A stretch of 63,991 nucleotides of DNA, counting the filler, from Sphacelaria rigidula (Eukaryota): NCBI GenBank assembly GCA_964200075.2. It is 7 parts of 7 records of this genome, joined end to end, with 100 filler letters (N's around TTAATTAATTAA, not from the genome) between each part and the next. Parts side by side here need not be neighbours in the genome. Positions count along the whole stretch, not along the records: positions 54,937 to 63,991 come from CAXNAA020009419.1; 6 more parts are not named here. One strand, given 5' to 3'. Each line of letters starts with the position of its first letter. The stretch's first letter is position 1. A model generated the notes under the pieces. It did no database searches and was not told the DNA's origin. It saw nothing but the letters and a program-made list of their open reading frames with translations. Below, in pieces: positions 9,058 through 63,991 of the stretch. A program made the translations under genes and the position numbers.

Positions 9058-9157
9058 NNNNNNNNNNNNNNNNNNNNNNNNNNNNNNNNNNNNNNNNNNN
9101 NTTAATTAATTAANNNNNNNNNNNNNNNNNNNNNNNNNNNNNNNNNNNNNNNNNNNN
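9058..9157. other. Artificial contig linker (44N-TTAATTAATTAA-44N)
   Basis: Fixed 100-bp spacer with a six-frame stop core. The same spacer occurs at 18214-18313, 27370-27469, 36526-36625, 45682-45781 and 54837-54936. Confidence 0.98.
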
Positions 9158-17945: not shown

Positions 17946-19419
17946 TTCTTCCAAGAAAAAAGACGAGACAAAACTTCTGTAAAAATTGGCCCAAAGAAAA
18001 AGGATGGGGTACTGCTCATACTTCGGGATACACGCGACGTCGTGGACGCGGGTTGCCCAAGATGTGTCCGAGCGGTCTCGAGTTGTAGAGGAGGGGGTTA
18101 GTTCGTATACGACAGCTTGGACAGAAGCATGGCAAGCTACGGAGTTGTTTGCTGTGCTTCCTCTAGAGCTCCCTCAATGCCGACGGAGGACCTCTAAAAA
18201 GTAACCTGTAGTCNNNNNNNNNNNNNNNNNNNNNNNNNNNNNNNNNNNNNNNNNNNNTTAATTAATTAANNNNNNNNNNNNNNNNNNNNNNNNNNNNNNN
18301 NNNNNNNNNNNNNTCCTCCCCCCCCCCCCCCCCCTCCCATTTTTTTCGAGAAAGTCGTTGTCGGTGGGTCACGTATACGTGATTGCCGTGCGTTACCGTT
18401 GCGTTGTGGTGCAAGATGGATCTCTGCGGGTGAGATCGTCGGGTTTGGCCAACTCTTATGGGAGCGTGTGACATTTTATTTTGCCACGAATTCAGAGGAG
18501 TCTTTTTTTTTTTCCCTTGTTATCGCGAGATCGGACTAATGTGCGGAAATAATAATAATAATCATGGTGAACGGGCACAAAATACACAACTATGGCAAAG
18601 AAAAAAAAATGTCGTTTGAAGTTATTGCAAAATAAAATTCTAAACGCTCCCTTATGAGTTGACCTTAGGGTGACGATTTTTTTCTTCTTCCGAAATCACC
18701 TTGTGGCGGATATTGGTGAAGGACATGATCTATTGACTCTCACCGATGCCTCGGCGATGTACGTTTCACACATTGAGCAATAGCCTCGATTTATTATGCT
18801 AGGCGCTTTTCTCGTATCGTGGCGGTTGATTGTTGTTCAGAAGGTGTGTTGCGTCTTTGAAGAGGACAGGGAATGACGAGTACATGGTGACAAGTTTGCT
18901 CGCAACGCTGCGCGGCAACACGAGTCGGGTGTTGGAGATTTGATATTATTTTGGACACGCTTTGAACCGTCAAGAGTATCTGTATCATGAGTGAATATTT
19001 TTGGTTTACTTTCTGTCTTTTTTCATCGTGTGGCAAAGAAGGAATCGTGAATGCATGATGCTCGGGAAGGTATGTTCTGCTTGAAGCACACCCTCTGTGT
19101 GCATGTGAAAGTGTTCATACTTTCCTGAACGTGTCCCCAGATGGGGCACGCCCTCAGATGGACCACGTGGAGGGACCGAATCAGACATGTTATGTTTCGA
19201 GGGTGAAACATGATCCCCCCCACTCAGCACATATGACATCCTGAACAATCTGATAACATTGGGAGAAGTGTACCGCGTACAGTACACTTTTTGCCAGTGT
19301 TGATCTGGTGTTCAAAATGTAACGGATATGCAAAGCATACCTCGACGGTCAGAGAAGCTAAACCTTACCTGCAACACTCTTCATTGTTTTTTTTTCTTCC
19401 CTGGTCGTCGTTGCCCCAG

Positions 19420-26832: not shown

Positions 26833-28059
26833 GTATGTATGTTATCTGCGCGTGTGGATGTTTTTCATACCCTGGACAAAGAATGTTCACCGCTTGGGAG
26901 GGTGCTCCGGCTGATTTTCAGTTAGACTTGATTTTAGCGTGAACAACGAAATCTGGATCTTCGATGGGGCTGTCCTCCTAGAGTGCGCGGAACGCGTCTT
27001 TTCCGGCAACGCACACTTTGTCCACGGCACACGTTTTACCCCCCTTGCTCGAGGGTCCTCGGTGTGCCTTCGTTGAGATTAGGGTTAGTGTTGGAGTCTG
27101 TTCGAAATGATGAATTTCCGAGAAACTTCTCAACCTCTCAAGCGGGGAACCACCCTCGCTGGACAGTACACCTGTTGGTGATGTCTCTAAAAGGAGTAGA
27201 AACGGTGGTCCGTCTCGGAAGGGATGCGTGATAAAAGGTCAAACGACCAAGCCAAGCAACAAGTAATGAGTACGCTCTCCCCATCCCCCCCCCCCCCCCC
27301 CCCCCCCCCAACACCGAACCCCCCACCCCCGCCCCCCCCGCCCGACAGCCAGAGAACTCTAGTATACAGNNNNNNNNNNNNNNNNNNNNNNNNNNNNNNN
27401 NNNNNNNNNNNNNTTAATTAATTAANNNNNNNNNNNNNNNNNNNNNNNNNNNNNNNNNNNNNNNNNNNNAAGACAGATATGCCACTTCAACCCCATATTT
27501 TGTATGAACCCCAAAATATAAAATCGGCTGTTGATTGGTAATCGCCGAGCGAGGACACACAAAGGACACCGGCGAGGACCTTCCTCTCTGTCGTTGCTTC
27601 TCTCTCTGATGATATCGTCATCGACACGCGTGTACACCACATTCGTTCGGTGCATTTAGCCACAACTAATTCACTGCTGCAGAGTTTTGGGGGAAATGTG
27701 GTTTCGCTCTGTGTTACTGTTTCGCGTCATCCCTGCAAAAAAGATATGCCACTTGAACCTCATTTTTGAGATTGACCTCCATTTTCTAGGATCCATTGTT
27801 GAATGATGAGACCCGCTCTCCATCAACGCTCTACTCTCCATCTCACGAGAATGTTGTTACTTGAGGTGCGCTTGTATTTGGTTCAAAACGGTGTCAAGCA
27901 TTATGAATGAGCGTTATATATCTATAACAAGCTCGTTCGAACAACCGTTACTACTTTCAACGACAATTTGACTTGGAATTTCGTGCAAGAAGTGGCCCGA
28001 CCCCCCCCTATCGTAGGATGACTCTTTTTTGTTCAACCCCATTTCCGAGAATCCGCTGT

Positions 28060-29390
28060 TTTCTCGTTTCTTGCCCAAGAAAGGTACGAAAAATGACCAG
28101 AAACGCGAAACAGCAAAACACACTGTCTAACCCGATTTCGCTTCGAATTTCTCACGCACAGCAATCGGGGGTTCCCGGCACCCGGGCCTCGAAAAAAAAC
28201 AGAAAAAAACACGAGACTCGCGAGATATGGCCATGCGCAGAGGGACATCTCGCCTCCAGAAACCACACTTCCCCTTTCTAGGCCAAACTTCGGCTAGATA
28301 TACGAGTATACCTGATCTAGGAATTATTTTCAATCGTACCTTATCCGGCCAACCAGTCGGCTCAGGAAGTACCTGTCCTCGGCCATCGCTTCCCACATTG
28401 TACCTAATGCGGCACACTGCGCGGAAGAGAATATATGCGCCAACTCTAACCATTGCGCCCACAGATTCGGCTCTTTTCCCGCCCATTTGCCGTTCACGAA
28501 CGCCACAACCACCACACTCCGTTCTTCCCGGAAATGGTTCCCGAGTCTCTCCGCATCGACACAAGAACTGGACTCACAATTTACAACACGTCGGTCTTTT
28601 GCGCTTGCGGAGTATTATGTAACATCGTGCTGTTTCAATCTGGGGCTGGTGTCATGTTCTGTATCAACCCTTTCGGGACCCTTTTCCCCCACAATCGTGT
28701 GTATGTTGGTGGCAGGTGTCCATTTGTAACCTGTGTTATTTCCAAGTCAAAATGATGGCAATTCACACCTTTTCGTGAATTGGCATCATTTTGACTTGGA
28801 AACAAAACTATGGACACCTGCCACAAACACACGATTTGGGGGGAAAAGTGGGGAAAAGTGCCACAACCATACCTTTGTGGGGAGTCAGGTCCAAAAAGGG
28901 TTAATGGTTGTGGCGTTAGGGTTAGTAACATGTATGTACTCGTTGTGACGGTCGTGAACGGAAAATGGGCGGGGAAAGGGCCCATTGTGTGGGCGCCATG
29001 GTGGGAGTTGGCGCGTGGATTCCTTTGCGCGCAGTGTGCCGCATCAGGCACAGCGTGGGAAGCGATGGCTCAGGATGGGTACTTTCTCGGTCGACTGACT
29101 ACCTACATAAGGTACGATTGAGAAAGAATTCCTAGATCAGGTATACCTGGCCGAGATTCGGCCTAGAAGGGGGAAGTGGTTTATGGAGGTGAGATGTCCC
29201 TCTGCCCCTGGCCATATCTCGCGAGTAATATATTTTTATTCTGTTTCATTTTTAGGTCCGGGCGCCGTGGAGCCCCCGCCCGATTGCTGTGCGTGGAAAA
29301 TTCGGAGCGAAATGAGTCTTGATTGTGCGTTCAACTGTTTTAGCGTCTCTGCCCATCTACTCATTTTTCGTAGCTTTCTTAGGCAAAATA
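28060..29390. mobile_element. Large foldback (palindromic) element, ~1.3 kb, centred at ~28770
   Basis: ~28060-28510 is the diverged reverse complement of ~28940-29390. The central stem 28739-28766/28775-28802 is 28 bp with 1 mismatch and an 8-nt loop. Confidence 0.85.
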
Positions 29391-36081: not shown

Positions 36082-36625
36082 GCATTGAGAATCCGGAATG
36101 GTTCGTGTTGATCTCTCCAAAGAAGACCGGTGTTGTTCCACGCAGAGAGCACTGCAGAGGGTGCCACCGAGCAGCTCGAAGTTTCGCAGCTCTTTGATTT
36201 ATTTATTTATTTTTGGGGAGGTGGTTATCGCAGGTACGACGTGTTGGAGTGCTGGCTGAGTTGTGCGTGTGGGTGTTGTGCCTTCTGTAAGGACCTCATG
36301 CACACTAGTGTGCATTCAGTATCCTCTCTCCGAGAAAAAAGAAAGATGTGCGCGCTTTCCTTGAGGGTTTTTTTTCCGTCTTCGTTCGTTTTTGACACAT
36401 TTTCTTCTTCGTGTCATGTAGGGTTGCTGGGGTACATGTCGTCACGGGCTAGTTTTGTGCAGACAAAAAATAGTAGTTTCACGAACACTGCTGAATGAAA
36501 AACCTATCTTGGTTGGAGTACAGTANNNNNNNNNNNNNNNNNNNNNNNNNNNNNNNNNNNNNNNNNNNNTTAATTAATTAANNNNNNNNNNNNNNNNNNN
36601 NNNNNNNNNNNNNNNNNNNNNNNNN

Positions 36626-43660: not shown

Positions 43661-46600
43661 GGAGGGGCGTATACTTATCATCATGCATGTCACAGTTATG
43701 GGTAGGAATGGGGGCCCGACCAAAAATCGGCACAAGATTTAAAATAAGAAATAACGCGGAGGAATAATGAACAAGTCAGTGGGTGGTCGGACCTGTGCCG
43801 AGGCCCTCACGAACAGAACACACACTTCATCAACTGTTCAGTTGGTGGAGTATGGGAAAGCTGTAGCACTGGAGATCGCGCGGTTCTCGACACAGGAAGC
43901 AAGCCGGTCCACGGCACTTGACAGCCCCCCGCATACACACAAGATCTAGGGGCTTACGTTTGGTATTTTGCTGGCGTCGCGTCAGCGGCACGAAAATCCC
44001 CTCCGAAAGCAGAGAATACCATATTTTAGTATATTTCGGTCATTTGCGAGTCAGCATCACGCGCAAACGCAAAATCAAACGTGGCGACATACCTTGGGTG
44101 TGTGGGAAGAGAACGCAAGAAACCGCAGTCCAATCCCTCGCTTCGTTACCGAGTTGTAAGCGGTGCGCGATCGGCACTTTTGGGTTGAGGGTGAGTAGCG
44201 TCTTTCGAGGTCGAAGATGGCAAATTCAAAAAAATCGGTGCGCATACTACTTTTCCTCCTGCAAGCAAGTTGTGACAACATGCACTTGGGTTGCGTGCCC
44301 CCAGGCGCTGCTTTGTTCTGAGCGGCTGTGCACAAAGGGCAAAATCTCCTTTCAACGGCGAGTATCCTTTGAAGCGTCGAATTACAGAGGGAGAGTTGAC
44401 AGAATAAGGACAACGCTGGCGGCTGCTTCATGTCAGGGCTCCGGTGCAGAAGCCAAGGCGTCGAGAGCGATTTTAGTACGAGTATGTGCGTTACATCTGC
44501 TGGTGACCGCGGTCATGTACACAGTAACTGTCTATATAGAATATTATATTGATAGCATCAGAATGAGATACAAACTATGCAATATTTGAGAAGCTTCGTT
44601 TTTCACTTTGTGGCATGCCACCAGTGCTGCTGCTTTGTTCTGTACGGCTGTGCACGAAGGGCAACTTCGCCTTTCAACAGCGAGTACCCTTCATGTATTG
44701 AGTTGCAGAGAGTGAGGTCACACATGAACTTCGGCTCTTGAGTCTGAGGGTTTCAGCGGAGAAGCCAAGGCGCTAAGAGTGATTTTGATTTCAGACTGCG
44801 CACCATGTATGCCTAGGTCGGCAGAGCCACGATGTTTCAAGTGACTGCCTGTACACATATCCGTACATACTGAAAATAGAGAGAAAATGACGCTGAAGAT
44901 GTTGATCTGGACAGAGAGAACCAGCCCGTGCCCAAGCGACTGACAAGATGGGATTCCTTCCACTCATGCCATGACCCTGACCCCATGGGGCGCATGAGAA
45001 ATTCACTCTCCAATCCCGCAGTCATAGCTGTGTGTAGGACATACAGCGCGTAGCCAATCCGCACAGCATGAACCTCTTGATCGCCAACATCATCAGCATC
45101 GTTCTCAGTAGCTTTCTGATGCGCGACGCTGCTGCTCATGATCTCCAAATTTCCGTATTTTCTCGTTCTAGCACCGTGTCAGGCATGCGTTTCACTGCAG
45201 TTACGTTCGTGTGTAGTGGCCACACCAGCTACTATTCGTGCTCCTTTTTTGATATCTCGCAATGATGGTAAACATGGGATGGCAGCTCGCGGGCGTGTGC
45301 TTCCCGACTGGTACAGACAGAGGAAGGACACTATTAGCTAGTGCAACAAGAATGTCCATCTACTGATGTGGAGCGAGCTTTCCGGAGGAAAAAATCACCT
45401 CAACACCGACCACTCCCAGGCTTGAGTAAATGCACTAGAAATATTATTCATTTTTTGGAGCCAAATCGTCATTTGTAGGTGACGCGTGTATTTTCCTTTG
45501 ATATGATTCATTGGATTACGGACCACTTCTGACGCATGTAGCGTTCAGCTTGCACTTTCCATGAATATAGTACCCCAAATCGGCCTCCATTCCTACCAAT
45601 AACAGTCATACGACCATTGACCTCGCATCCCTACAAAGCCGGGACGGAGCACGCCGGGTGCTTGTCGGACCAGACTGGGAGNNNNNNNNNNNNNNNNNNN
45701 NNNNNNNNNNNNNNNNNNNNNNNNNTTAATTAATTAANNNNNNNNNNNNNNNNNNNNNNNNNNNNNNNNNNNNNNNNNNNNCGGACATCGTTAAGGGCTC
45801 GTATAAACATAACGATACAGACTTATGGGACAGAGGAAGTATCAAATCTGAACATCGTTCAGCTTGTTGAGCTCTTTCAGACGTCTGCGGTCAGCATCAA
45901 CTCACTAACTTTGTTCCCGTCAAGTTGCTCTCGTCGTCGAGGGTTCCGCGTAGAATATGATGTATTTCGCAGTATTTACTCCACTCAAATTTTGGCTAGA
46001 TTGAGTATGACCCCACATACTTGACTCAAAATTTGGGTGAGCTCTCTCAGTAATACTCAGGTATAGAGTATCACATGGGTGTGATGAGTAACCGTGACCA
46101 TCGGCAACTTCGTGACGTCACTTCACAGACTCGTTCAAATACGTGGGCGAACCATGGCCATCAATGAGATGAGTGACTTCACCTCACGGGCTAGAATGAG
46201 TATGAGCGAATGGTGGCCATCAAAAAACAAGAAAAAGTGTGCAGGTGAATGAACCTACCTGCCCCAGCTCACCTGCCCCCACCCATGGCAGTACATACTT
46301 CAAACCGATGTCGCAAGCTCTTCAATGTCAGTTTCAGTACAGAGCGCTACTCATCATCATTGGGTAATCGAGTAGACGAGTAGGCGGGTAGGTATTGTCA
46401 AAATGAGCGACTCTACTGGCCGCACATCTGACTCTTCTATGGGAGAGTCAGCGGTGGAAACAGTTTAAGACGCGGAAACATCGGAAAAGTCGCAAGAGGA
46501 GAGAACAGAAAAAGGCGCGACCGGGTCAAGAGTGATGGGCCTGGCCCCAAAAGAGGCCCCGGCGATCTGCGTCGTAGAGGCCTCAGATATCTTGCGTACG

Positions 46601-51021: not shown

Positions 51022-51545
51022 CTTACTCTATCCCATAAGTAAAGGTACCTATATTTGTACGGGCCCTCAACGATGTCTGATATATTTGTTATCTTTAATG
51101 AACTCTACGGTGTTTTTTGGGTTGGGAAAATGTGTTCAAAAATTGCAGCTCGTGCTTGAACCATGCCGCCGAACGGCTGCAAAAAATGTAATCGGCTTCA
51201 AAATGGCCGTTTTTTGCCCCTTTCCGAGGGGAAAAAAGGTGTCGTTCTTTTTCTTTTTAATCGCGTGGGACTTCCTGACAGCAAGCCCCAGTGAAGGCGC
51301 GGGCGGTTAAAAAAAAAAAATCGGCACTTTTTTTCCCCTCGGAAAGGGGCAAAAAACGGCCATAGTTGGGCCGTCTACTCTTTTTACAGCCGCTCGGCGG
51401 CATGGTTCAAGCACGAGCTGCAAATTTTGAACACATTTTCTTAACCCCAAAAACACCTTAGAGTCTATTAAAAAACAAACAAACGATCGGACATCGTTAA
51501 GGTCCCGTACAAATTTAGGTACCTTTACTTATCGGACAGAGGAAG
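51022..51545. mobile_element. Stowaway-like (Tc1/mariner) palindromic MITE in a CWC22 intron
   Basis: ~240-bp inverted arms. The right end ...ACTTATCGGACAGAGGAAG|TA resembles a Stowaway CTCCCTCCGT terminus with a TA target. The right end of another copy lies at 45782-45841. Confidence 0.85.
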
Positions 51546-52910: not shown

Positions 52911-55277
52911 GTGCGTCGGGGTGCCCTGCCTTAAGTTATTGCCTGTTTCATCATTTCCTCTTCCTTTTTTTTCGTCAGCGCGACAAAACTTGGGCGTTGT
53001 TGGGTGCGGAAGCTTGCCTTCTGGGGGAAATGAGTAACACTATACACGATTCAACACGAACATTAAACCGTACTGCCAAAAGTTGGCGCCTGGCTCGTAC
53101 AGCAGTGCAGGCGAACTGGGAACTATTCATGCTGTCGACCGACTGCTGACAGTACATGTATATGCGTTTTATCACCTGTGTTGCGCAGCGCACAAGTAAG
53201 ACATGAAACTCTTCAAGATTTTGTCATTCCACCTGTCCGTACTGACTGCGCTGCTGTTGGGAAAGTTGCACGATGCACTGTGGTCTGTAGCTTGTACCAC
53301 CTCCGTGTCGTCTTCCATGCCTACCTGCATCTTCACAGGGTATCCATCGTGGGACGTGGCGGCTGATGTGTGTGTGATGGTTTTTCTTTGCGTCATTATA
53401 GTTGACACTTGACGGACGAGTGGTAGCCACAAATCCGTTGGTAATGAGGGGAAATGATTGTTTCATCTACAGGGGGTGGTATACAACGTCCGCGGGTGAT
53501 GATCGGCATTTGCCGAAAGTAGCTGAAAGGTCATTACCCGGGGGTTTCATTTACGTAGCGTGTGCGTATACCCAGCACGTGTTTTTTATCGCAATCTACT
53601 GCAATCAACTCTTGGAGCGCCCCGTGTGTTCATCTGGTGAATCGGCACCAATTTCAAATGATGAACAGCTGTCCGTCACTGTTGTCCACCTGCGGGTGGG
53701 TGCTCAAAAGTGTTGAAATTTTGGTATTTTATTTTATTTGGTGATGCCTGTGGCATGTGGTGGAAGAGCTTTGTGTACAATGCGTGTCATCAGCACGATT
53801 TTTTTTATTGTTGACATACAAACGGGCCGCGGGTAGAACTGACTACATGTACACAGGTAATGCCACTGACCTCATGTGTGTGATGGAGCAGTCCAGGGAA
53901 TTGGCACTCAGACAGTAAGGCTACAATACTGCTCGAGCCAGGCATGGGCTTCCATGCGTATACTCTTGAACTGTCTCCAGGGAAATAGTCGCGTTCAGGT
54001 ATACTTGAGCACCTTTCGGACATATTTATGCACATCTCCGTAACCATACAAAATGCCTCAATGTGGCCATCAAATAGGTCGAGAAGGTCAAGTATCTCCG
54101 CATGACCGAAAATGCAGCATGTGTACCTACAACCGTCTACTGTACCTACAACTCTTTCAAGAGGATTTTTTTCTTCCTTTGACGGAAGAAGGAAACCCAA
54201 CCAAACACTTACCTCGCAAAGCGAGTTGAAGGTGGCCAGGACCGGTTCCGGAATTTCGCCCGATAATTACTTGTTAACCGAAATCCCTAGATGCAAAGAA
54301 CCACTTATTACGCCGCAAATGTGGACAAGCCACGGAGTTTCGGTCCAACATATCGGGCAATGAAGCTCGTGTACGCAAAGAGGCAGCAAAACTGACTCAT
54401 TGCTACGCACTTCTGGTTATTTGCCATTACCAAGAGGCGCTTCTGCTGCGCGTTTGCACCCATATTTTCCCCGCTCGACCTCGAAGAAAACTCTGTTGCC
54501 TCGGTACCGCTCCTGGCCACTTTCAGGTGCACGTGCTGCATTTTCGATTATTTGTGAGGTATCTTGCCCTCTCGACCAACTAGATGGCCGCCTTGTGGAT
54601 ATTTTTCACGGTGACGGGGGTGTACATGGGCATGTCCGAAGGGTGCTCAGGTGGTGTCTTAACGCGACCGTTTTCCTTGCGTTGATGTCCCCTCTGTTAC
54701 ACCAGTTGGGGTATTTGAGTTCACAAGGAGCGTTCACCCCAACGGCGTGTATGTGCATACATGTTAACGGGACTGTTATAGATTCATTTAAGTTTTTATC
54801 GACAGCTAATCCGATATAACTTTTTCCCCAAATAATNNNNNNNNNNNNNNNNNNNNNNNNNNNNNNNNNNNNNNNNNNNNTTAATTAATTAANNNNNNNN
54901 NNNNNNNNNNNNNNNNNNNNNNNNNNNNNNNNNNNNCCCCCCCCCACCCCCTTTTCAGAGTTGGCGTTGGTTGGCAACGACGCTGTAAACCACATCACTA
55001 ACTGCTTCAGCTAAGCAACTAGGTCATCGATTTTTTTCTCACGTTCGTTTTGTTTACGGAAACAATGATGGTGAGCGAGTTAGATCATGTTGTCCGGGGT
55101 GGAGAACATTAACTCCGCGCGGTGGGGGTGATCGTACTGCGTAGTGGTTAGCTGGTGAGGCACCCATGAGGCAGTTCCACCCGTGCCTGTCTCTGCAAGT
55201 GAGGGTACCAGAATTGACTCAATCGAGATTGTCATCCATGTTGAAGATACGTAGTACGCCTCAGGTCAAAGAATCGT

Positions 55278-56429
55278 ACGAGCTGGGCCAGCCTAAAATT
55301 TGAGCTCTAAAAGCAATATATCGTCGACACAGACGAGTTGGGCCGTGATCCGCATATCGTATTCATCGTCTAACCAAAGGGAAGGTTCCTATCTGCTTAG
55401 AAGTTTGGGCCCATATTTTCTCGTTGATTAAACCCCATGTCCAGTAATTCCTATACCTAGCGGAGATGGCGTCCATACTAAAATCTTTATGAAACCCCCG
55501 ATCGATGCATTTAGCGGATGACGACGAATTTTGGTGTGGACATTCTCTGGAGCAAGGGAAGACGATATATACCCTCACCTTTACCTAATTCGTTATCTAT
55601 CCCGAGATATGGCGCGCATAAGTTTCCATACTTGAATCAATATATGACGAGCAGAGGCACTAGATGCCCTAAATCTGGATATCGCGTCTCAGTTTTTGAG
55701 AGTTCCATGAAAATTCCGATGGTGAACCGCTAGTGCATAATAGAAAAAATGAAAACAGTTTGTTACCTTTTGTCATTTTCTTTTTTCGTGTTTTTAGTGG
55801 AGTTTTGAGGAGAAATGAACGTTGCTCTTGGGCCTTATCTCAATGTTTGAGCTCAATTTTTAGAATTATGATTTGAAACTTAGCATGGAGGACCACAAAG
55901 TGTGCCGAATAAAAAATATACATGGGCCTTCATTTTTTTTTCAAGAGGTTAGGACGTTCTCGTGAAGAAATACCACACTAAAACGCCCTCAACTAGTGAA
56001 AAAAATGAATAAAAAACTGACCCACTGAGTGTTGTTAATTATCCCCTGGCGGGACCTACACAAAATTTCAATACACAAAAACCAAACGTGGGCCGGTGAG
56101 TGGCCTGCGAAATACTGTTCCGAATTTCTACCGACCCGCTTTTTCGAAGGCGAATGCGCCGGCCAATATTTGGGGATGGAGCATCAAATTTGGTATGGAC
56201 AATGCATGGAGCATCAAATAAAATTTGGTTAAGGGCAATAATCAACTTTCAGGTATCAGTAAAACGCCCTTAACTCACGGAAAAGAAAAAAAAAACTTCT
56301 GGTGCTTCTTTCCAATTTTTTTGAATGCCCTATGCATTGTCCATACCAAATTTGACGCTCCAGCTCCAAATATTGGCCGGCGCATTCGCCTGCAACCTTC
56401 CAATCCGCCTTTAGGCTGGCCCAGCTCGT
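55278..56429. mobile_element. Non-autonomous DNA transposon, perfect 20-bp TIR ACGAGCTGGGCCAGCCTAAA
   Basis: TIRs at 55278-55297 and 56410-56429. AT-rich non-coding interior with an internal inverted pair at ~56148-56215/56325-56391. No clear TSD. Confidence 0.8.
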
Positions 56430-56640
56430 GGCAGGATGCGGATCACTCGTAATGCGACTCGCCGAACACATCACAGCACTTCGTGCTTGGCGATTGCGAG
56501 CCTGGTCCGGCGAAAACCCGGCGTGCTTCGTCCCAGCTTTGTAGTGATGCGAGGTCATTGGTCTTATGACTACGGCATGCAAACTTGTGAGTAACCCCCC
56601 CCTCCCCACACCCTCGACAAAATAACACCATGTCGCCCAG

Positions 56641-57129
56641 GCCATCCGAGCCGCCGAGGTCCACCGTCAAGTCGTGGAGAGGTGTCACCGCGAGCGCGTT
56701 GCCGGGGAATCCCAACTGAGTCGTGAGCGTGCTGCGTGGGAATCCGATCTGCGCAGCCAGCGTGCTGCTTGGGTGTCCGAGCTGCGCCAGGAGCGCGTCG
56801 CTGTGCAGCGAGGGGAAAAGGAGGCGGCGGCGGCACGGCGGGGGTTGGAGAAGGCTCAGCGGAGAGCAGACGAGGCGGTCGAGCTGCGCCGGAAGCACGC
56901 CGCTGTGCAGCAAGAGAACAAGGCGGCGGCTGCGCAGCGGGAGGTGGAGAGGGCACGGCAGGGAGCAGACGCGGCGGTCGAGCTGCGCCAGGAGCGCGCC
57001 GCTGTGCAGCGAGCGGAGAACAAGGCGGCGGCGGCGGAACGCAAGGTGGACAAGGCACGGCGAAGAGCAGACGAGGCGGTCGATGCGGCGGAGGCTTGGA
57101 GAAAGGATCGCGCTGCGACCGCAGTTCAG
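56641..57129 (+). CDS. Putative exon of an unknown coiled-coil protein with three 33-34 aa internal repeats
   Basis: Acceptor cccag, donor cag|GTGGGA, 489 nt open, phase 0-0. The A/E/R/K-rich 'ELRQERAAVQRAENKAAAAERKVDKARRRADEAV' repeat starts at GAGCTGCGCC 56779, 56881 and 56980. Confidence 0.65.
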
Positions 57130-59619
57130 GTGGGAAAGAGGTGGAAAACGGGGGGTACGGTAGGCAGGTGCGGCGGGCTGGGGCACAAACAAGCGGTTGT
57201 CCCATGCAGGTCGAAAGCGCTGTGCACATGGAGTGTAGAGCGTCGTGCTTGGAACAAAGCCGCTCGTGTGCCCACCGTGGTGGATGCGGAGGTTAGCATC
57301 TCGTCCGAATTTGCATAGTTGATAAGGTTATATCCCAAATTAAGCACGAGTGCTCATGGCGATCGGACGAGAGCGGCATGTGCCAACAGAGGAGATGAAG
57401 AGTCCGAGGCCTGTGACAAACGAATTAGCAACGAAAACAGCGAGGCACGTTCTGGTATGCGAGTACTTGTGCTTCGGAGCTGGTGTAGACATACTTGCAG
57501 CAAGGGGGCAAACCATGGCCTACGGGCTACTTGATACAAGTTCCACAGAACTCCGTCAATTCGATTTTGGTGCAGTACCTTGCAGTAGTAGTCGTGTTTT
57601 TGCGTCATGTACCACACCTGCTAGGGTGCTCGCACCACGCTTCGCGGAGTTCACAAACGTTCGCAGTGGTTGTAGTCCTGTAGAGTAAGCACGACTCCAC
57701 TTTGCAGCGTATTTTCCCTTTCCTGTTGGGCTTGAGTACTTCTCCTGTCCAACAGCGTCTGTCCCGTAGCTATCTATCCAACAGGTTTATTTCGTTGCAA
57801 CCGCCGACTAGGAAAATCTGTTTTCATGAACAACCGAAAGCTTTCCTCTCATCACATCGCGAAAGCCGGCTCCTTGGTCGCGCAGACATTGCCCCTCCGC
57901 CTCCAAGTGCCGGACTTGCCCCACTCGGTCCCACATCTGTCATCGCTCGGCCTCCACCTCCTGCTACAGGCCATGCGACATTTCTCGAAGGATACCCACC
58001 TCTGCTACTCGTGCCCTCGGCGCTTCCTGTGTCTGTCCCAACCACGACGATGCAGCGGGGTTCCGCGATTCGGGAAGAGGAGAGTCTCGGATGTCCATGA
58101 AAACAGATTTCCCTAGTCGGCCGCTAGTACGGAGTGCAGCTATCCTTGGCAAGTGTTGACATTAGGCTATCATTCATACCCCGGCCTAACGGTAGCGAGC
58201 ATTCCCAGCCAGAATTCGAAGAAATCAAACAGAAAAGAAGCACGCACGCACCCACGCACGAACACATCCTGTGGTGGCGACTATGTTCTGCATTAGCTAT
58301 CGGCAGAGAATGCGCGCTCGCCTTCCTCCCCCCACCCCACCAGAAAACACGTGACCATCTACACCTTTGAGCAAAGCTTCCTAAACGCTGGAGTCGCCTA
58401 CCTCAATGACTGCCCCGAGGCGGTCTATCCAAGCCTCGGGGTAATTGGCACACAAAGCCGCTTTTGGGATGAGTGTTGGGTGAGGTTTCCTCCTTCCTTC
58501 AAGGAAAAGCAAAAATGTCACGTTCCGAACAAAGCGAAGTCGTTTGTATACACGCTGTACAGGCTGGTCCGAGACAGGATCCAGAATTTTCGTCGGCGTT
58601 CATTTCCCACGCTACTTTTAAGAGTTGCTAGACCGAATTCGACACATGTGTTCCTGGAAGCAAGCCCGAGATCGCCGATGTACTTGCGCATCGAGTTTCG
58701 CTCTGTTATTTTAGCCGCGGGCCCTAGTATAGGACATCGATGAAACCGAGCGGAAGTCCGGAGGCACCAACACCGGGAACGTCGGTTTTGTCTCCAAGAA
58801 CGCGTGTGGAATTGCGTCTCTGGACTCTTGACGGTGGCGTGAGAGATGAAGCATAGGTGACGTGATTCGAGAGTGGAGGTTACACGGGTATTTTCGACGG
58901 CTCATGCAGCAGAGGTCTCTCGCTGAAACCTGTCACCTCTGCGCCAGCATTTCGGGCGTGGTCTTTGCACTCTGCGCACCTCCGATTGCAGGCTTCGCGT
59001 GTCTGCTGACAAGCTCCACAACTGTGCTTCGGAGGCATCGTGCCTCGCCTTTAGCTAACCATTCGCGTAAACACGAGAGAGAGAGAGACAGGGGAAAATA
59101 AGCAGACTTTTTTTCATGTGATGCAACGCCTTGGAACCGATCAAGAAACATGGACACTTGAAGAGTCATACGGCGATGACGGCTGAACTGTTTGGAGGAT
59201 GTCGCTCAGAGTATGTATGTTACGCTGCGAGCATTCGAAATACAGTGACAAATACTGTGCGCTTTGCACACGTGCACACCCCATGAGATCGAACTGCCGT
59301 GTTGCCATCAGCGGTGCCTCGTGACTTGCGGGTACCGATATCTGTATCCTACTACAATACACTGCGGCACGAGAATCATTGTGGGGGAGACAAGCCGTCA
59401 CGTACGCGTGGTCTGTCTGTAGAAGTGTCTGCGGCATACTAAGTACTCTGTAGGTCATGCGATGTAGCTGACACGAATGTTGTTTTCCGGTCCAGGGTTG
59501 AGCGCCCTCGTGTCTTGATATCCCCGTGTTGCTCATGCTGTCCGTTTCCGATAGCACCTATTTTCCGTGCGCTTGGTCCTGTGCCTCGTGAATCGCAAAT
59601 GGCACGATGCGTGCATCAG

Positions 59620-59715
59620 GTCTCCGAGTTAAGGCGGAAGCTTCATGCGTCAGAGGAGGCGGAGAAGCGCTCAAGACAGCGCATCTCCCAGCTGCAGCAG
59701 CAGCACAGTGGGGAG
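59620..59715 (+). CDS. Putative 96-nt coiled-coil exon module A
   Basis: catcag|VSELRRKLHASEEAEKRSRQRISQLQQQHSGE|GTAAC, phase 0-0. Confidence 0.65.
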
Positions 59716-59968
59716 GTAACAACGCCGACGGTGCTTGTGTCGCCGCTTTCACGCCTTGTACTACAATTATTGAGACACAATATGAACATCAATAGTATCG
59801 TTTGTTGCTCAGCGATCGAGTGCAGTCCAGGGCTGAGCGCTCTCGTTTATATATGTCACGCACTGTGTATCCCCGTATTTCTCATGCAGCCCGTTTCCGA
59901 TCGCACCTAACCTGCGTGCGCTTGGTCCTGTGCCGCGTGAATCGCAAACGGCATGATGCGCGCATCAG

Positions 59969-60064
59969 GCCCCTGCTTTTCGCCGCAAGCTTCTTGCATC
60001 GGAGGAGGCGGAGAAGCGGTCGCAACAGCGCAGTGGGCAGTTGGAGCAGCGTCACAACGAGAAG
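59969..60064 (+). CDS. Putative 96-nt coiled-coil exon module B
   Basis: catcag|APAFRRKLLASEEAEKRSQQRSGQLEQRHNEK|GTACT, phase 0-0. Confidence 0.6.
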
Positions 60065-60071
60065 GTACTAC

Positions 60072-60167
60072 CTCCACGTTTTGACGCTGCTTCAACTGCC
60101 CGATGCGCTGTTGCGAGCGCCTTTCCGCCTCTTCCGAGGCGAGAAGCTTCCCCCGAAGGTCGGAGAC
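60072..60167 (-). CDS. Putative 96-nt coiled-coil exon module C (inverted copy)
   Basis: On the - strand: catcag|VSDLRGKLLASEEAERRSQQRIGQLKQRQNVE|GTAGT. Frame and splice sites are intact. Confidence 0.55.
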
Positions 60168-61251
60168 CTGATGCACGCATCATGGCGTTTGTGATTCACG
60201 CGGCACGGGACCAAGGGCGCGAAAAATGGGTGCAATTGGAATCGGGCAGCACGAACTAAGCACCGGGATTTCTGAAATTCCACCTAGTCACTGCGCTGAA
60301 GCAGGAAAACTATGTTTCTTGGACCATTTACGGTCAATGACACCCTCCTGATAAACGGGGTCTTTACCCAGTATCGCCCCCACAACACCCACTTGGGCGA
60401 TTGTGACTTGAGCACGGTTTGCTTATCTCGCCAAAACTATCGACGCTAGCATTTTCGGGTGCTCATGGAAAATGTTATGCGAAAAAAAACGAAAATAGGT
60501 CATCCGCAGAAAACGCTAGACTGAGGTCTGTGCAGTATGGAAGGGAAACACAATCTCGATCGTTATTGTGAAGAATTTTTCACGTGTTGATTTATCTGAA
60601 TATTTACCGTTTCGTCGCTCAAGAGCGGGAAAAGTGCTTATATTGGCAAAAAAACGCTTTCTATAACACCCTCCTGATAAACGGGGTATCAAGTCCGTAA
60701 CGCCCCAAAAACACCAACGTGAGCACTGCAGTTTGAACGCGGCCTACGCTTTCTCCCTAACTCTACCGGCGCTAGCACTTTCAAGTAATGAAAAACGGTA
60801 CTCCAGAAAAGCTCAGAAAAAAGGACAACTACGAATTCTGAAAACTTCTGATGCTGACTATTAAAACTTGAAAGCTATTTGCACATCGAGGCCTAATTGT
60901 GTGTAACATGAGACGGCGCACGCAAACTTTGCAGATACCTGCCACACACTTGCCCGAATCCACCACGAGACTAAAACAGGTTTTACGTTATGTCGGTATC
61001 ATAACCAACCCCGCTCCGCAGATGACCGCCACAAAAAAAACTCGAGTCTGTGGATGATTGCCCGATAGAGGATATTGTTATTAAGATATGTTTATTTTCC
61101 AATATTTTTATTATTATTACTACTTTTATCACCATTATGATTATTTTTTTCATTAGTATCATCATTATTTTCTTTCTCATGTAAGTTTTTCTCTTCTTCT
61201 ATTTTCGTCACTTTTTGTTTTGTTTTGTTTTTTGTTCTTGTTTTCGTGCAG

Positions 61252-61412
61252 GCAACCAACATATCGTACGGGAGTAGCCTTGACATGAGGAACTTTCAGG
61301 GGAACAGAACGGCGGGAATGGTGGAGATCGATTTGTCCAAGGACCTCCCGACGTCTGCAAGAGTACGGGACTTGCGCAACCTCGCGGGCAGGGGGGTCGA
61401 CGCCCCAAACAG
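61252..61412 (+). CDS. Putative exon, unknown protein
   Basis: Long polypyrimidine tract + gtgcag, donor ag|GTAGA. Only one frame is open (ATNISYGSSLDMRNFQGNRTAGMVEIDLSKDLPTSARVRDLRNLAGRGVDAPN). Confidence 0.6.
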
Positions 61413-61561
61413 GTAGAGTATCATTAGACGCCGGTGTACATCGCTGACACGAATCATGCTACGGTAGGGGGCATACTCAGTCGTTCCTCGCCTTGGTCGC
61501 TCGATCATTGATCACGCATCCCTTCTGAGACAGAACACCGCTCCTACGCCCAATAGAGAGA

Positions 61562-61971
61562 TGCTACGGTAGGGGTGCACTTTTTTGGCCAAACCTTGTC
61601 TGAGGTATTTTTACGTTGTGGCGCAAAACGACAGCATTTTCCACAATTTGTTCACGTTCAGAAGCAACTTCATCCGGAGTGCACCACCACAGCCCGAGTG
61701 CGCGAGAGCCTGTATCTAACCCTAGCACGCCGGCCGAGAAATATTCCAACGTTCGGATGAATCATCGGCGATTCGAATCACCGAATCCACGACTTTTTAG
61801 GCCTGCGCCTCTCCGCGTGCCTGGGGTGCGCGTACCTGGGTTGCAACGCTGAAAACAGAGCCCAAGGACTGATTCGTACGGTACGAATCAATTACACTAT
61901 AATCAAGTAATTTCCAGACGAATCATTGATTCGTCCGACCGTTGAAATATTCGCGCACCCCTACCGTAGCA
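61562..61971. mobile_element. MITE with perfect 17-bp TIR TGCTACGGTAGGGGTGC
   Basis: TIRs at 61562-61578 and 61955-61971. Similar termini occur at 17676, 61457 and 63871. Internal sequence is shared with 21640-22165 and 63220-63810. Confidence 0.85.
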
Positions 61972-62307
61972 CGGCTCATACGTGCAGTAGCAAGGCATCT
62001 AGCACCTGCTGTACGCTCGTGAGAGCTTATTTTCTCTTTCTTTTTTGTCACACGTTGTAATTCCAACCCTTAGCATCCCTCGGGACGAGTCCATGGCTGC
62101 GGGGGGATCAATCCGTCTCTCCCCCGGTACACGCCTTATATTTTGGTCTCGCAGATTGGATGATGACTATCAGCACTCCCCTGCCGAGTCGATTGTCGGT
62201 CAAACAACTTCAGCCGAACGAAGCAATGTACTGTAGCTACTGATGTGCTCACGATGTCGACGATGGAAGGCAGAGGCTTCGCAGGAAAGAAGTCATACCC
62301 TGGACAG

Positions 62308-62770
62308 TCGCATCTCAAAACAATCACCTTCAACAAAATCTATGGTCGTGAACGGTCCAAGGGCGCAGGGTACGTACCTCGGTGGTCTAGTACTACATTT
62401 TACACCATAAAGGTTCGAAAACATGGGTTGGATTCCCGCTACATGTGTTTGGTTTGAATCCTTGCGCACCCTGGATAATGACAATATATCACATTGTCAA
62501 AAGTGTACTGCGTATAGTATGGACACCATTATCTCTTGTAATAGGTGCAATGGTCGATACTGCACGCCGTACACTTTCTGACAACGTAATATAGTGTCGT
62601 TATCCAGGGTGCGCAAGGATCTAAACTAAACACAATTGGCGGGAATCCAACCCACGTTTTCGTAGCTTTATGGTGTAAGTTGTAACACTAGACCACCGGG
62701 GTACGTATGCTGCGCCCTTGAAACGTTCACGACCATCGATTTTTTCGAAGGTGATTGTTTTGAGATGCGA
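62308..62770. mobile_element. Palindromic MITE/foldback, ~220-bp arms
   Basis: TCGCATCTCAAAACAATCACCTTC... pairs with ...GAAGGTGATTGTTTTGAGATGCGA. The arms align inward to ~62540. Confidence 0.88.
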
Positions 62771-63060
62771 GGGCCTGCTGAACTGTCGAAGAAGGGACAC
62801 AGTCTCTGATGACACCCACCTAGTTCTCGACAAGGACTGTCCAATTGACATACATAGCTGTTGATGCCACGAGCTCCGTCACTGTCGGCAAACTAGCAAA
62901 TTGAAAAATGATTTATACATCTCAGTGTGCCGTAATAACAGTACAGAAACAGTGGATGCTAATCAGTCACTCGATACTGACGCGTTTCGGTTCGCCATAT
63001 TCCCGTGCTGCATACACTTGACCGTTGCTTCCAAATCCCGCCCCCCTTCCCCCATCCCAG

Positions 63061-63187
63061 TTCTGCGCTGATGCCGGACGTGATGAACGTCATGTTCTTG
63101 CCGCTGTGGGTACCTACTTCCCTGCTCAAGTTTGTGGGGTCTGCGCCGGCGTTGCTGGATGCTGACATCGAGGCCGTCAAAACTCAG
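63061..63187 (+). CDS. Putative exon, unknown protein
   Basis: cccag|...SALMPDVMNVMFLPLWVPTSLLKFVGSAPALLDADIEAVKTQ|GTGT. The phase-2 start is compatible with 61252-61412. Confidence 0.6.
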
Positions 63188-63991
63188 GTGTCTGTTATAT
63201 TGATTTACGTATGTTTGAAGGGTTGGGCGAATCACCGCTGGTTTGAACCATCAAATGCACGAGTACTGAGACCTGGTCGCTCGAAAGAGAGAGAGAGAGG
63301 AAAAAAAAGTTGACCGCGGGTCAAAGAAAGTGTAGGCAATTTTGGTGCTATATTAAGTACCGGGGATGCTCCACCCGCACAGCAAATTGGCGTTCATGAC
63401 AGGCGTGCTCGAGAGCGAACCCCTAGGATGAGCGGGAAAGTGCAGAGCAATCGCCTCGGTGGTGAAACGCCTCTTTTTTTTTCTTTCTTTTCTTTTTTTT
63501 TTTCCTTGAAGAAGGAGGAAACCTGATTCAAAACTTGAGACACGGTTCGGACAAATCATCGCCTGTTCCAATTGCCCAATCTACGATATTTCAGGCCTGA
63601 TTGCTCGAAAGAAAGAAAAAAGTTGACCGCTGGTCGAAGAAGATCTCCACGCATTTTTTGCGCCATTCCACGGGCCTGGGCTGCGCGTACCTGGGTCGCA
63701 ACGCTGAAAACAAAGCTTAATGATTGATCTCGTACGGTACGAATCAGTGACACTGAAATCGAGCAATTTTTAGACGAATCATTGATTCATCCGACCCTTG
63801 AAAACTTACCCCTCGAACGGGTTCGGGTGCCGATTACCCAGAGGCTCGGCTAGACTGCCTGAGCAATGAATGCTATGGTAGGGGTGCACTTTTTTCGCGA
63901 AATTTTGTCTGGTTCAGGGGCTCCTAGCGATTCTAGACGCACAAGAATATGGGTCACAGCATCCCTGCTTGTAGATATATTCGGGGGATCC

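Follow-up and report, generated by a model that had tools for sequence, protein, structure and literature searches.

A coding-like block in three local copies, one of them inverted, in Sphacelaria rigidula

Arrangement of the three copies

The stretch of DNA analysed here (the window, 63,991 nt) comes from Sphacelaria rigidula (GenBank assembly GCA_964200075.2) and consists of seven chunks of approximately 9,056 nt, joined by linkers of the form N44-TTAATTAATTAA-N44. Features of different chunks are thus not genomic neighbours, and the genomic context of the locus considered here, a short triplicated segment that evolves like coding DNA, is the single contiguous chunk 54937-63991 only (record CAXNAA020009419.1). 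In this chunk, copies A and B follow each other on the plus strand, and copy C faces B on the minus strand, the two forming a palindrome (table 1). An earlier reading made from the sequence alone (hereafter, the original prediction) had described three 96-nt exon-like modules, each with an upstream flank, at this place. Indeed, all of its structural statements hold: the three copies, their strands and lengths, the catcag before and the GT after each module, the open frames, the 7-bp spacer and the palindrome.

Comparison of the unit with the window by BLAST gave 79% identity over 200 nt for A versus B (E 2e-45), with a start-to-start period of 349 nt; 80% over 186 nt for B versus C (E 2e-44); and 77-78% over 204 nt for A versus C (E 5e-40), the homology of C to A and B stopping near 60272. 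No further copy of the unit was found in the window at E<0.1 with blastn or tblastn. The three modules are each 96 nt long and open in frame 0, and all are preceded by CATCAG and followed by GT (GAG/GTAACA in A, AAG/GTACTA in B and GAG/GTAGTA in C, the slash marking the module end). Modules A and B lie 253 nt apart and share 70% of their nucleotides and 19 of 32 residues; modules B and C are separated by GTACTAC (60065-60071). Seventeen codons differ between B and C: the original prediction had counted six synonymous differences, which is right, and had left unmentioned the 11 non-synonymous ones.

The arms of the palindrome (59882-60067 and 60069-60254) leave 1 unpaired nucleotide between them, and both terminate 3 nt past the module, within the GTA of the putative donors. 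Folded as RNA, 59868-60270 reaches -297.5 kcal/mol, against -152 +/- 6 kcal/mol for 100 shuffled sequences (z = -23.8); the palindrome is thus not a product of chance. To verify its reality, we compared the window with contigs of four of 11 listed public runs: two DNA runs, X1 (possibly the source sample) and X3 (a separate study), and two runs labelled RNA by guess, X6 and X7, whose contigs are unstranded. The palindrome centre is crossed without any difference by an X1 contig (59880-60189) and by an X3 contig (59742-60189), and copy A (59477-59741) is likewise present in contigs of both, so that the arrangement is found in two independent data sets. Since both DNA runs, from two studies, bridge the centre, it is not an assembly artefact, and an origin as a missed adapter or chimera is ruled out because the arms differ by 20%.

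Depth was tabulated in bins of 302 nt, and boundaries of repeat blocks are no finer than a bin. Unique contigs of depth 20-36 tile 56687-60189, whereas the summed depth of the flanking repeats exceeds 100,000 in the DNA runs. The unit is low-copy DNA between very high-copy repeats, and accordingly does not belong to a high-copy transposon at >=90% identity, a possibility that the original prediction had set out to be checked.

Table 1. Features of the locus and of the window (positions in the window; a slash marks a putative exon boundary).
Feature	Position	Strand	Remarks
Copy A, repeat unit	59519-59718	+	found by repeat search and BLAST; 61-codon coding-like block 59533-59715; 96-nt module 59620-59715
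Copy B, in tandem with A	59868-60067	+	block 59882-60064; module 59969-60064
Copy C, fold-back (inverted)	60069-60254, with gaps to 60272	-	block 60254-60072; module 60167-60072
Palindrome centre AGGTA-C-TACCT	60063-60073		axis 60068; bridged by DNA contigs of X1 and X3
Putative exon E1	56641-57129	+	489 nt, phase 0 at both ends; acceptor cccag/GCC, donor CAG/GTGGGA
102-nt tandem repeat in E1	56778-57083	+	three copies about 80% alike, encoding 33-35-residue Ala/Glu/Arg-rich repeats
Very high-copy repeat outside C	60273-60980		summed contig depth >100,000 in the DNA runs; edges to bin precision
High-copy block bounding the other side of the low-copy region	55242-56751		summed depth >100,000 in the DNA runs
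Six identical linkers (44 N, TTAATTAATTAA, 44 N)	9058-9157, 18214-18313, 27370-27469, 36526-36625, 45682-45781, 54837-54936		spacing 9,156 nt

Length of the coding unit and state of the copies

Substitutions among the copies were placed on a star tree and compared with 20,000 simulations preserving the observed counts of transitions and transversions, all substitution counts coming from three short sequences. In a six-frame comparison, frame +0 yields a ratio of non-synonymous to synonymous differences per site (pN/pS) of 0.18 in the 87-nt flank and 0.36 in the module, versus 1.05-2.79 and 1.18-1.40, respectively, for four of the remaining five. The last one, antisense and with third codon positions in common with +0, gives 0.29 for the flank and 0.58 for the module, and has 3 stop codons. 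Antisense coding of the block was accordingly rejected: the open antisense frame has a pN/pS above 1, and stops interrupt the low-ratio one in every copy.

Synonymous changes represent 10 of 17 changes in the flank (P=0.006) and 15 of 31 in the module (P=0.0009), and the overall 25 of 48 was matched by none of the simulations. This synonymous excess in frame 0 supports a derivation of the modules from coding sequence, and the coding frame assigned to them by the original prediction is borne out. The same analysis speaks against its acceptor-side ‘intron flank’, which evolves as coding sequence in the frame of the module and without indels. Indeed, the 87 nt before CATCAG are 82-87% identical among copies versus 70-78% for the module, and 186 nt of the unit are free of indels in all three copies, with 3 indels in the approximately 45 nt directly upstream. 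Since the proportion of synonymous differences is alike in flank (0.41) and module (0.52), the paradox of a ‘conserved intron’ is removed.

The simplest reading of these patterns would be that the whole unit is a coding stretch in one frame, 61 codons long or more, and not an intron flank followed by a 96-nt exon; CATCAG could then be read as a His-Gln codon pair and would not necessarily be an acceptor. Both the 96-nt exon boundary and the CATCAG acceptor are doubtful, because the flank has no indels and its changes are mostly synonymous in the frame of the module. Frame 0 of copy A is open from 59443 to 59910, and a candidate better acceptor, richer in pyrimidines, lies upstream (ttgttttccggtccag/G, 59495/59496, phase 2). 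A caution arises from this case: an AG before an open frame had been taken for an exon boundary, and the substitution pattern makes the coding unit about twice as long.

The copies differ at codon 25 of the block, which is CGA in A (59605-59607) and TGA in B (59954-59956) and C (60182-60180, minus strand), in frame and 4 codons ahead of CATCAG. If the block is a single exon, A would be intact and B and C broken; if the short-exon model is right, the TGA would be intronic and harmless. Copy A appears to be the likeliest copy still in use, given an uninterrupted frame, a phase that matches the putative upstream exon E1, and RNA-run contigs in its bin. Copies B and C, with the TGA inside the block, are probably spare or decaying. 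The three are about equidistant (37-41 differences in 183 nt; synonymous divergence, Ks, of 0.7-1.1 on approximately 22 synonymous sites).

Upstream exon, transcription and neighbourhood

The acceptor of E1 is preceded by a C-rich tract, and the open frame around it (56626-57318) is rich in Ala, Glu, Arg and Gln; E1 is charged and helix-prone. The indels among the three repeats of E1 are multiples of three, and from its sequence E1 reads well as an internal exon rather than a first one; short-form A and B would join in phase with its donor (57129/57130). A kinship between its 34-residue repeats and the module was considered and rejected (tblastn E=19). Contigs of the RNA runs that are 90-95% identical to 56778-57083 suggest alleles or an expressed paralogue. 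The DNA runs contain two insertion alleles just upstream of E1: X1 has an extra TCGA following position 56602, and both X1 and X3 have an extra C following 56627. Each allele is found in one contig and makes up about a third of the depth.

X6 and X7 do hold RNA, as a spliced contig with a 61409>63058 joint (GT..AG) is present in both and in no contig of X1 or X3. Contigs of both runs cover 56687-56899 without difference, with more pieces to 57115; an X6 piece lies at 58660-58860, and both runs show some depth in bin 57658-57959. The bin that holds A (59470-59771) has RNA-run contig depths of 7.3 and 6.3, from contigs lying somewhere within the bin. Depth is 0 in bins 57356-57657, 57960-58261, 58866-59469 and 59772-60073, the last of which holds B, a value that is not evidence on expression; in the bin of C, RNA depth is swamped by the adjacent repeat. 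Weak transcription of the locus is thus supported, its exon structure being putative; no exon was found downstream of B.

Searches for relatives returned little. Compared with 1.84 billion representatives by HMMER, the open reading frame (ORF) of E1 gave a single match (E 3.9e-4, 26% identity) to a kinase with 17 TPR repeats, which probably reflects the 34-residue periodicity and the composition and has too little strength to be considered. Neither the A ORF nor the 76-residue unit found relatives in word-index searches, and back-translated scans yielded 593 pattern matches in metagenome contigs and 24 in viral contigs, none of them confirmed. A search of the ESM Atlas with an ORF from a different chunk produced no usable result. 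No Pfam family passed the cut-off for the 26 ORFs scanned in 54937-63991, among approximately 50 of at least 70 residues; both the A ORF and the E1 ORF were included. A subthreshold match to a leucine-zipper model (E 0.059) is the sole hint of a coiled coil, which would otherwise follow from composition. In Rfam, the only matches were subthreshold and of hairpin type, the best in the region being isrG (25.8 against a gathering score of 100) and mir-503 (22.9 against 54), and a tRNA search of the region found none. The ‘unrecognised coiled-coil gene family’ proposed for the modules was therefore not recovered in protein, metagenome or viral searches, and the unit may well be a piece of a lineage-restricted orphan gene without known relatives.

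The low-copy region lies between two repeat blocks, and no LTR-like or terminal repeats were found around it. Directly before a GTGAGT motif and E1 is an extremely high-copy short element (56495-56581), with sharp loose ends at 56492/56495 and 56581. Its bin reaches a summed depth of approximately 1 million in the DNA runs and 100,000 in the RNA runs, an RNA-to-DNA ratio far above that of neighbouring repeats, and ARAGORN found no tRNA in it. On the other side, a strongly expressed spliced gene has plus-strand exons at 61249-61412 and 63061-63187, separated by a 1,648-nt GT..AG intron; the contig joint cited above takes the form GT..AG after a 3-nt shift and is carried by contigs of 2,727 and 2,842 nt (depth 530 and 387). 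The 836 nt that precede 61249 in the contig do not lie on 60980-61098, so that earlier exons are located elsewhere. The frame is open over the junction, and Pfam gives no family for either exon frame.

Within the intron of this downstream gene is a second palindrome (62308-62770), with 195-nt arms that are 87% complementary and a 73-nt loop; each of its strands matches Rfam MIR2630, with 75 and 73 bits, below the gathering score of 144. Further inverted repeats in the chunk are 57803-57880/58045-58121 (78 nt, 78%) and 56148-56391 (78-nt arms, 90%, 88-nt loop), and more palindromes occur in other chunks (51094-51472 and 28327-29124). Small fold-back structures are common in this DNA.

Origin of the triplication and comparison with known systems

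We favour, with moderate confidence, a local triplication, old and static, in which a coding block of an orphan gene was copied, A being likely live and B and C being relics. A unit of at least 200 nt would have been copied once in tandem, giving A and B with their 349-nt period, and once as a fold-back, giving C. The shared end point of the arms, 3 nt beyond the module and with an axis of 1 nt between them, makes a replication template switch or hairpin repair the most likely origin of the fold-back. A simple inversion of a third tandem unit was also considered and rejected, as the reverse complement of an A-type downstream intron that it predicts beyond 60272 was not found by BLAST, although repeat DNA begins there. 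More generally, the locus would offer a small-scale example of exon-sized coding blocks that are copied in tandem and by fold-back and retain a coding look for long.

Several observations weigh against this reading. CATCAG/G and AG/GTA are unchanged in all three copies, as fits the short-exon model, and the junctions listed in the run contigs include none that involves A, B or C, the exon boundaries being putative. The TGA is present in two of three copies, and parsimony would favour it as the ancestral state, cutting the 61-codon block in two, the alternative being two parallel C>T changes at one CpG. The repeats of E1 display no codon-position bias (7, 11 and 9 variable columns, of 33 each), and E1 has no in-frame ATG, that at 56630 being shifted by one base; the gene may itself be fragmentary. 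Finally, synonymous changes amount to 10 of 16 on the branch of C (P=0.002), 9 of 19 on that of A (P=0.02) and 6 of 13 on that of B (P=0.15). The branch of C thus bears the strongest sign of purifying selection, which should not be expected of a copy dead from birth. It is possible that C was used in forward orientation for most of its history and inverted late, that part of the ‘C branch’ belongs to a functional ancestor, or that C is still of some use. The last option can be extended to a locus acting as an exon reservoir, in which C would be kept translatable by occasional use, B and C changing places through gene conversion or through an inversion in the conserved outer parts of the arms; the synonymous excess of C, together with its unchanged AG, GT and length, would be the footprint of such a reservoir, an idea that we regard as improbable.

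Two rival readings come next, although each seems unlikely to us. Copies A and B could both be live phase-0 exons, consecutive or mutually exclusive, spliced via CATCAG, with C inert and the 87 nt serving as an intronic splicing element. Both are 96 nt long and open, with CATCAG/G and AG/GT kept; they are in phase with the donor of E1, the TGA of B would be intronic as it lies upstream of CATCAG, and the flank is better conserved than the module. In addition, equal-length, in-frame tandem duplicates are the usual source of mutually exclusive exons, according to the abstracts of PMC9013439 and PMC3228551. However, the flank changes are mostly synonymous in the frame of the module, unlike those of an intronic element; the 30 nt leading up to CATCAG are mostly purines (12 pyrimidines, counted by eye), whereas the confirmed intron of the downstream gene has a C/T-rich tract; and no corresponding junction is among the contig joints listed. 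The other reading, with which we credit no greater chance, is exon shuffling of the brown-algal type, in which ectopic recombination or gene conversion would, over generations, copy modules, invert them and exchange them, C being a spare on the non-coding strand. Such intact non-coding-strand exons are documented in brown algae, as far as the passages seen of PMC3341825 go, and C retains its frame, AG, GT and selection signature. The flank moreover groups A with B (11 versus 15-16 differences) and the module groups B with C (21 versus 26-29), so that a mosaic is possible, though not significant. Against shuffling stand the mere three copies, all within 750 nt and with none elsewhere in the window, the absence of LRR or TPR (0 Pfam families above cut-off), the lack of relatives among the 1.84 billion representatives or in the other searches, and the age of the copies, at odds with the very recent origin suggested in those same passages of PMC3341825. 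From the analogy drawn in the original prediction, the inverted intact exon stands as a documented pattern in the part of that source consulted, and no kinship to LRR or TPR, or to any family, was found. By these sequence features, the locus would resemble a minimal version of the ROCO exon pattern, but it fails the LRR/TPR domain test that defines it.

The original prediction went further and proposed a shufflon-like switch, in which programmed or frequent inversion through the inverted flanks brings C in place of B on the transcribed strand. Its topology is sound: we reason that recombination within the outermost 87 nt of the arms would swap complete modules without shifting the frame, and the greater conservation of the flanks and the signal on the branch of C would agree with it. 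Frequent exchange would nevertheless homogenize the arms, and these are only 80% identical, too diverged for homologous flipping, as the longest exact run between B and C is 14 nt. No near-identical crossover sites and no recombinase were found, none of the 26 ORFs scanned within the 9-kb chunk having a recombinase domain. In contigs from both DNA runs, the reference orientation is present with 0 differences, and no strand-changing joint at 59880-60254 is among the joints listed (509 more lie outside that list), contigs being unable to exclude a rare form. To our knowledge, no programmed inversion of this kind has been described in algae, although we made no literature search. We hold such a switch to be extremely improbable; the DNA most likely does not flip, and the triplication would be static. 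The alternative offered alongside it, control of B by an RNA hairpin, fares no better, as the B/C mismatches show no strand-specific G-U compensation (13 for the plus-strand RNA versus 9 for the minus-strand RNA, p=0.52). A related proposal is that a transcript of B and C folds into an imperfect double-stranded RNA of approximately 190 bp, giving small RNAs that act on A or paralogues. Allen and colleagues reportedly proposed, in 2004, an inverted-duplication model of young microRNA genes. The palindrome does stem from inverted duplication of a gene segment (compare PMC3237417), and the fold is very stable (z -23.8). On the other hand, G-U pairs are not in excess over A-C on either strand, and hence there is no sign of selection on pairing. 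Coding-type substitutions on both arms are unlike what a hairpin RNA gene predicts, and the Rfam matches are all far below their gathering scores. We therefore consider this proposal very unlikely.

Replication template switching and hairpin repair are a general mechanism of fold-back segmental duplication, and the locus resembles duplication-inversion events in that its arms meet at the same base, with an axis of 1 nt, no spacer and a direct copy adjoining; it differs in its very small scale (approximately 200 nt) and in the 20% divergence of its arms, the event itself being one that we infer. In bacterial shufflons and other invertible switches, inverted repeats flank alternative coding segments. 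The likeness is that inversion here would swap coding segments in frame; the differences are a eukaryotic host, no recombinase found, no near-identical crossover sites and no second orientation seen.

As in the mutually exclusive exons treated in the abstracts of PMC9013439 and PMC3228551, A and B are adjacent, homologous and of the same length and phase, and thus have the sequence properties of such pairs. Here, however, a third copy is inverted and a TGA lies just upstream of B, and either-or use would be hypothetical. Another likeness is with the ROCO genes of Ectocarpus, whose 72-nt exons encode one repeat each (Zambounis et al. 2012, PMC3341825). In the passages seen of that paper, intact LRR exons with conserved splice sites are reported on the non-coding strand at 19 ROCO and 13 other LRR loci, and the conserved splice sites of these inverted exons are taken to suggest a very recent origin. 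Our locus would share with them a fixed-length phase-0 module with intact splice motifs, inverted beside copies on the same strand. It differs in a coding signature that runs 87 nt past the proposed acceptor, in its three old copies with no Pfam family, and in the near-perfectly centred B/C palindrome, a feature not described for ROCO loci in those passages. Should the inverted copy prove to be used, the shuffling of antisense spare exons would extend beyond LRR/TPR receptor genes and be a more general means by which these algae vary repeat proteins. For now, we file the locus as a local tandem and fold-back duplication of an exon-sized coding block.

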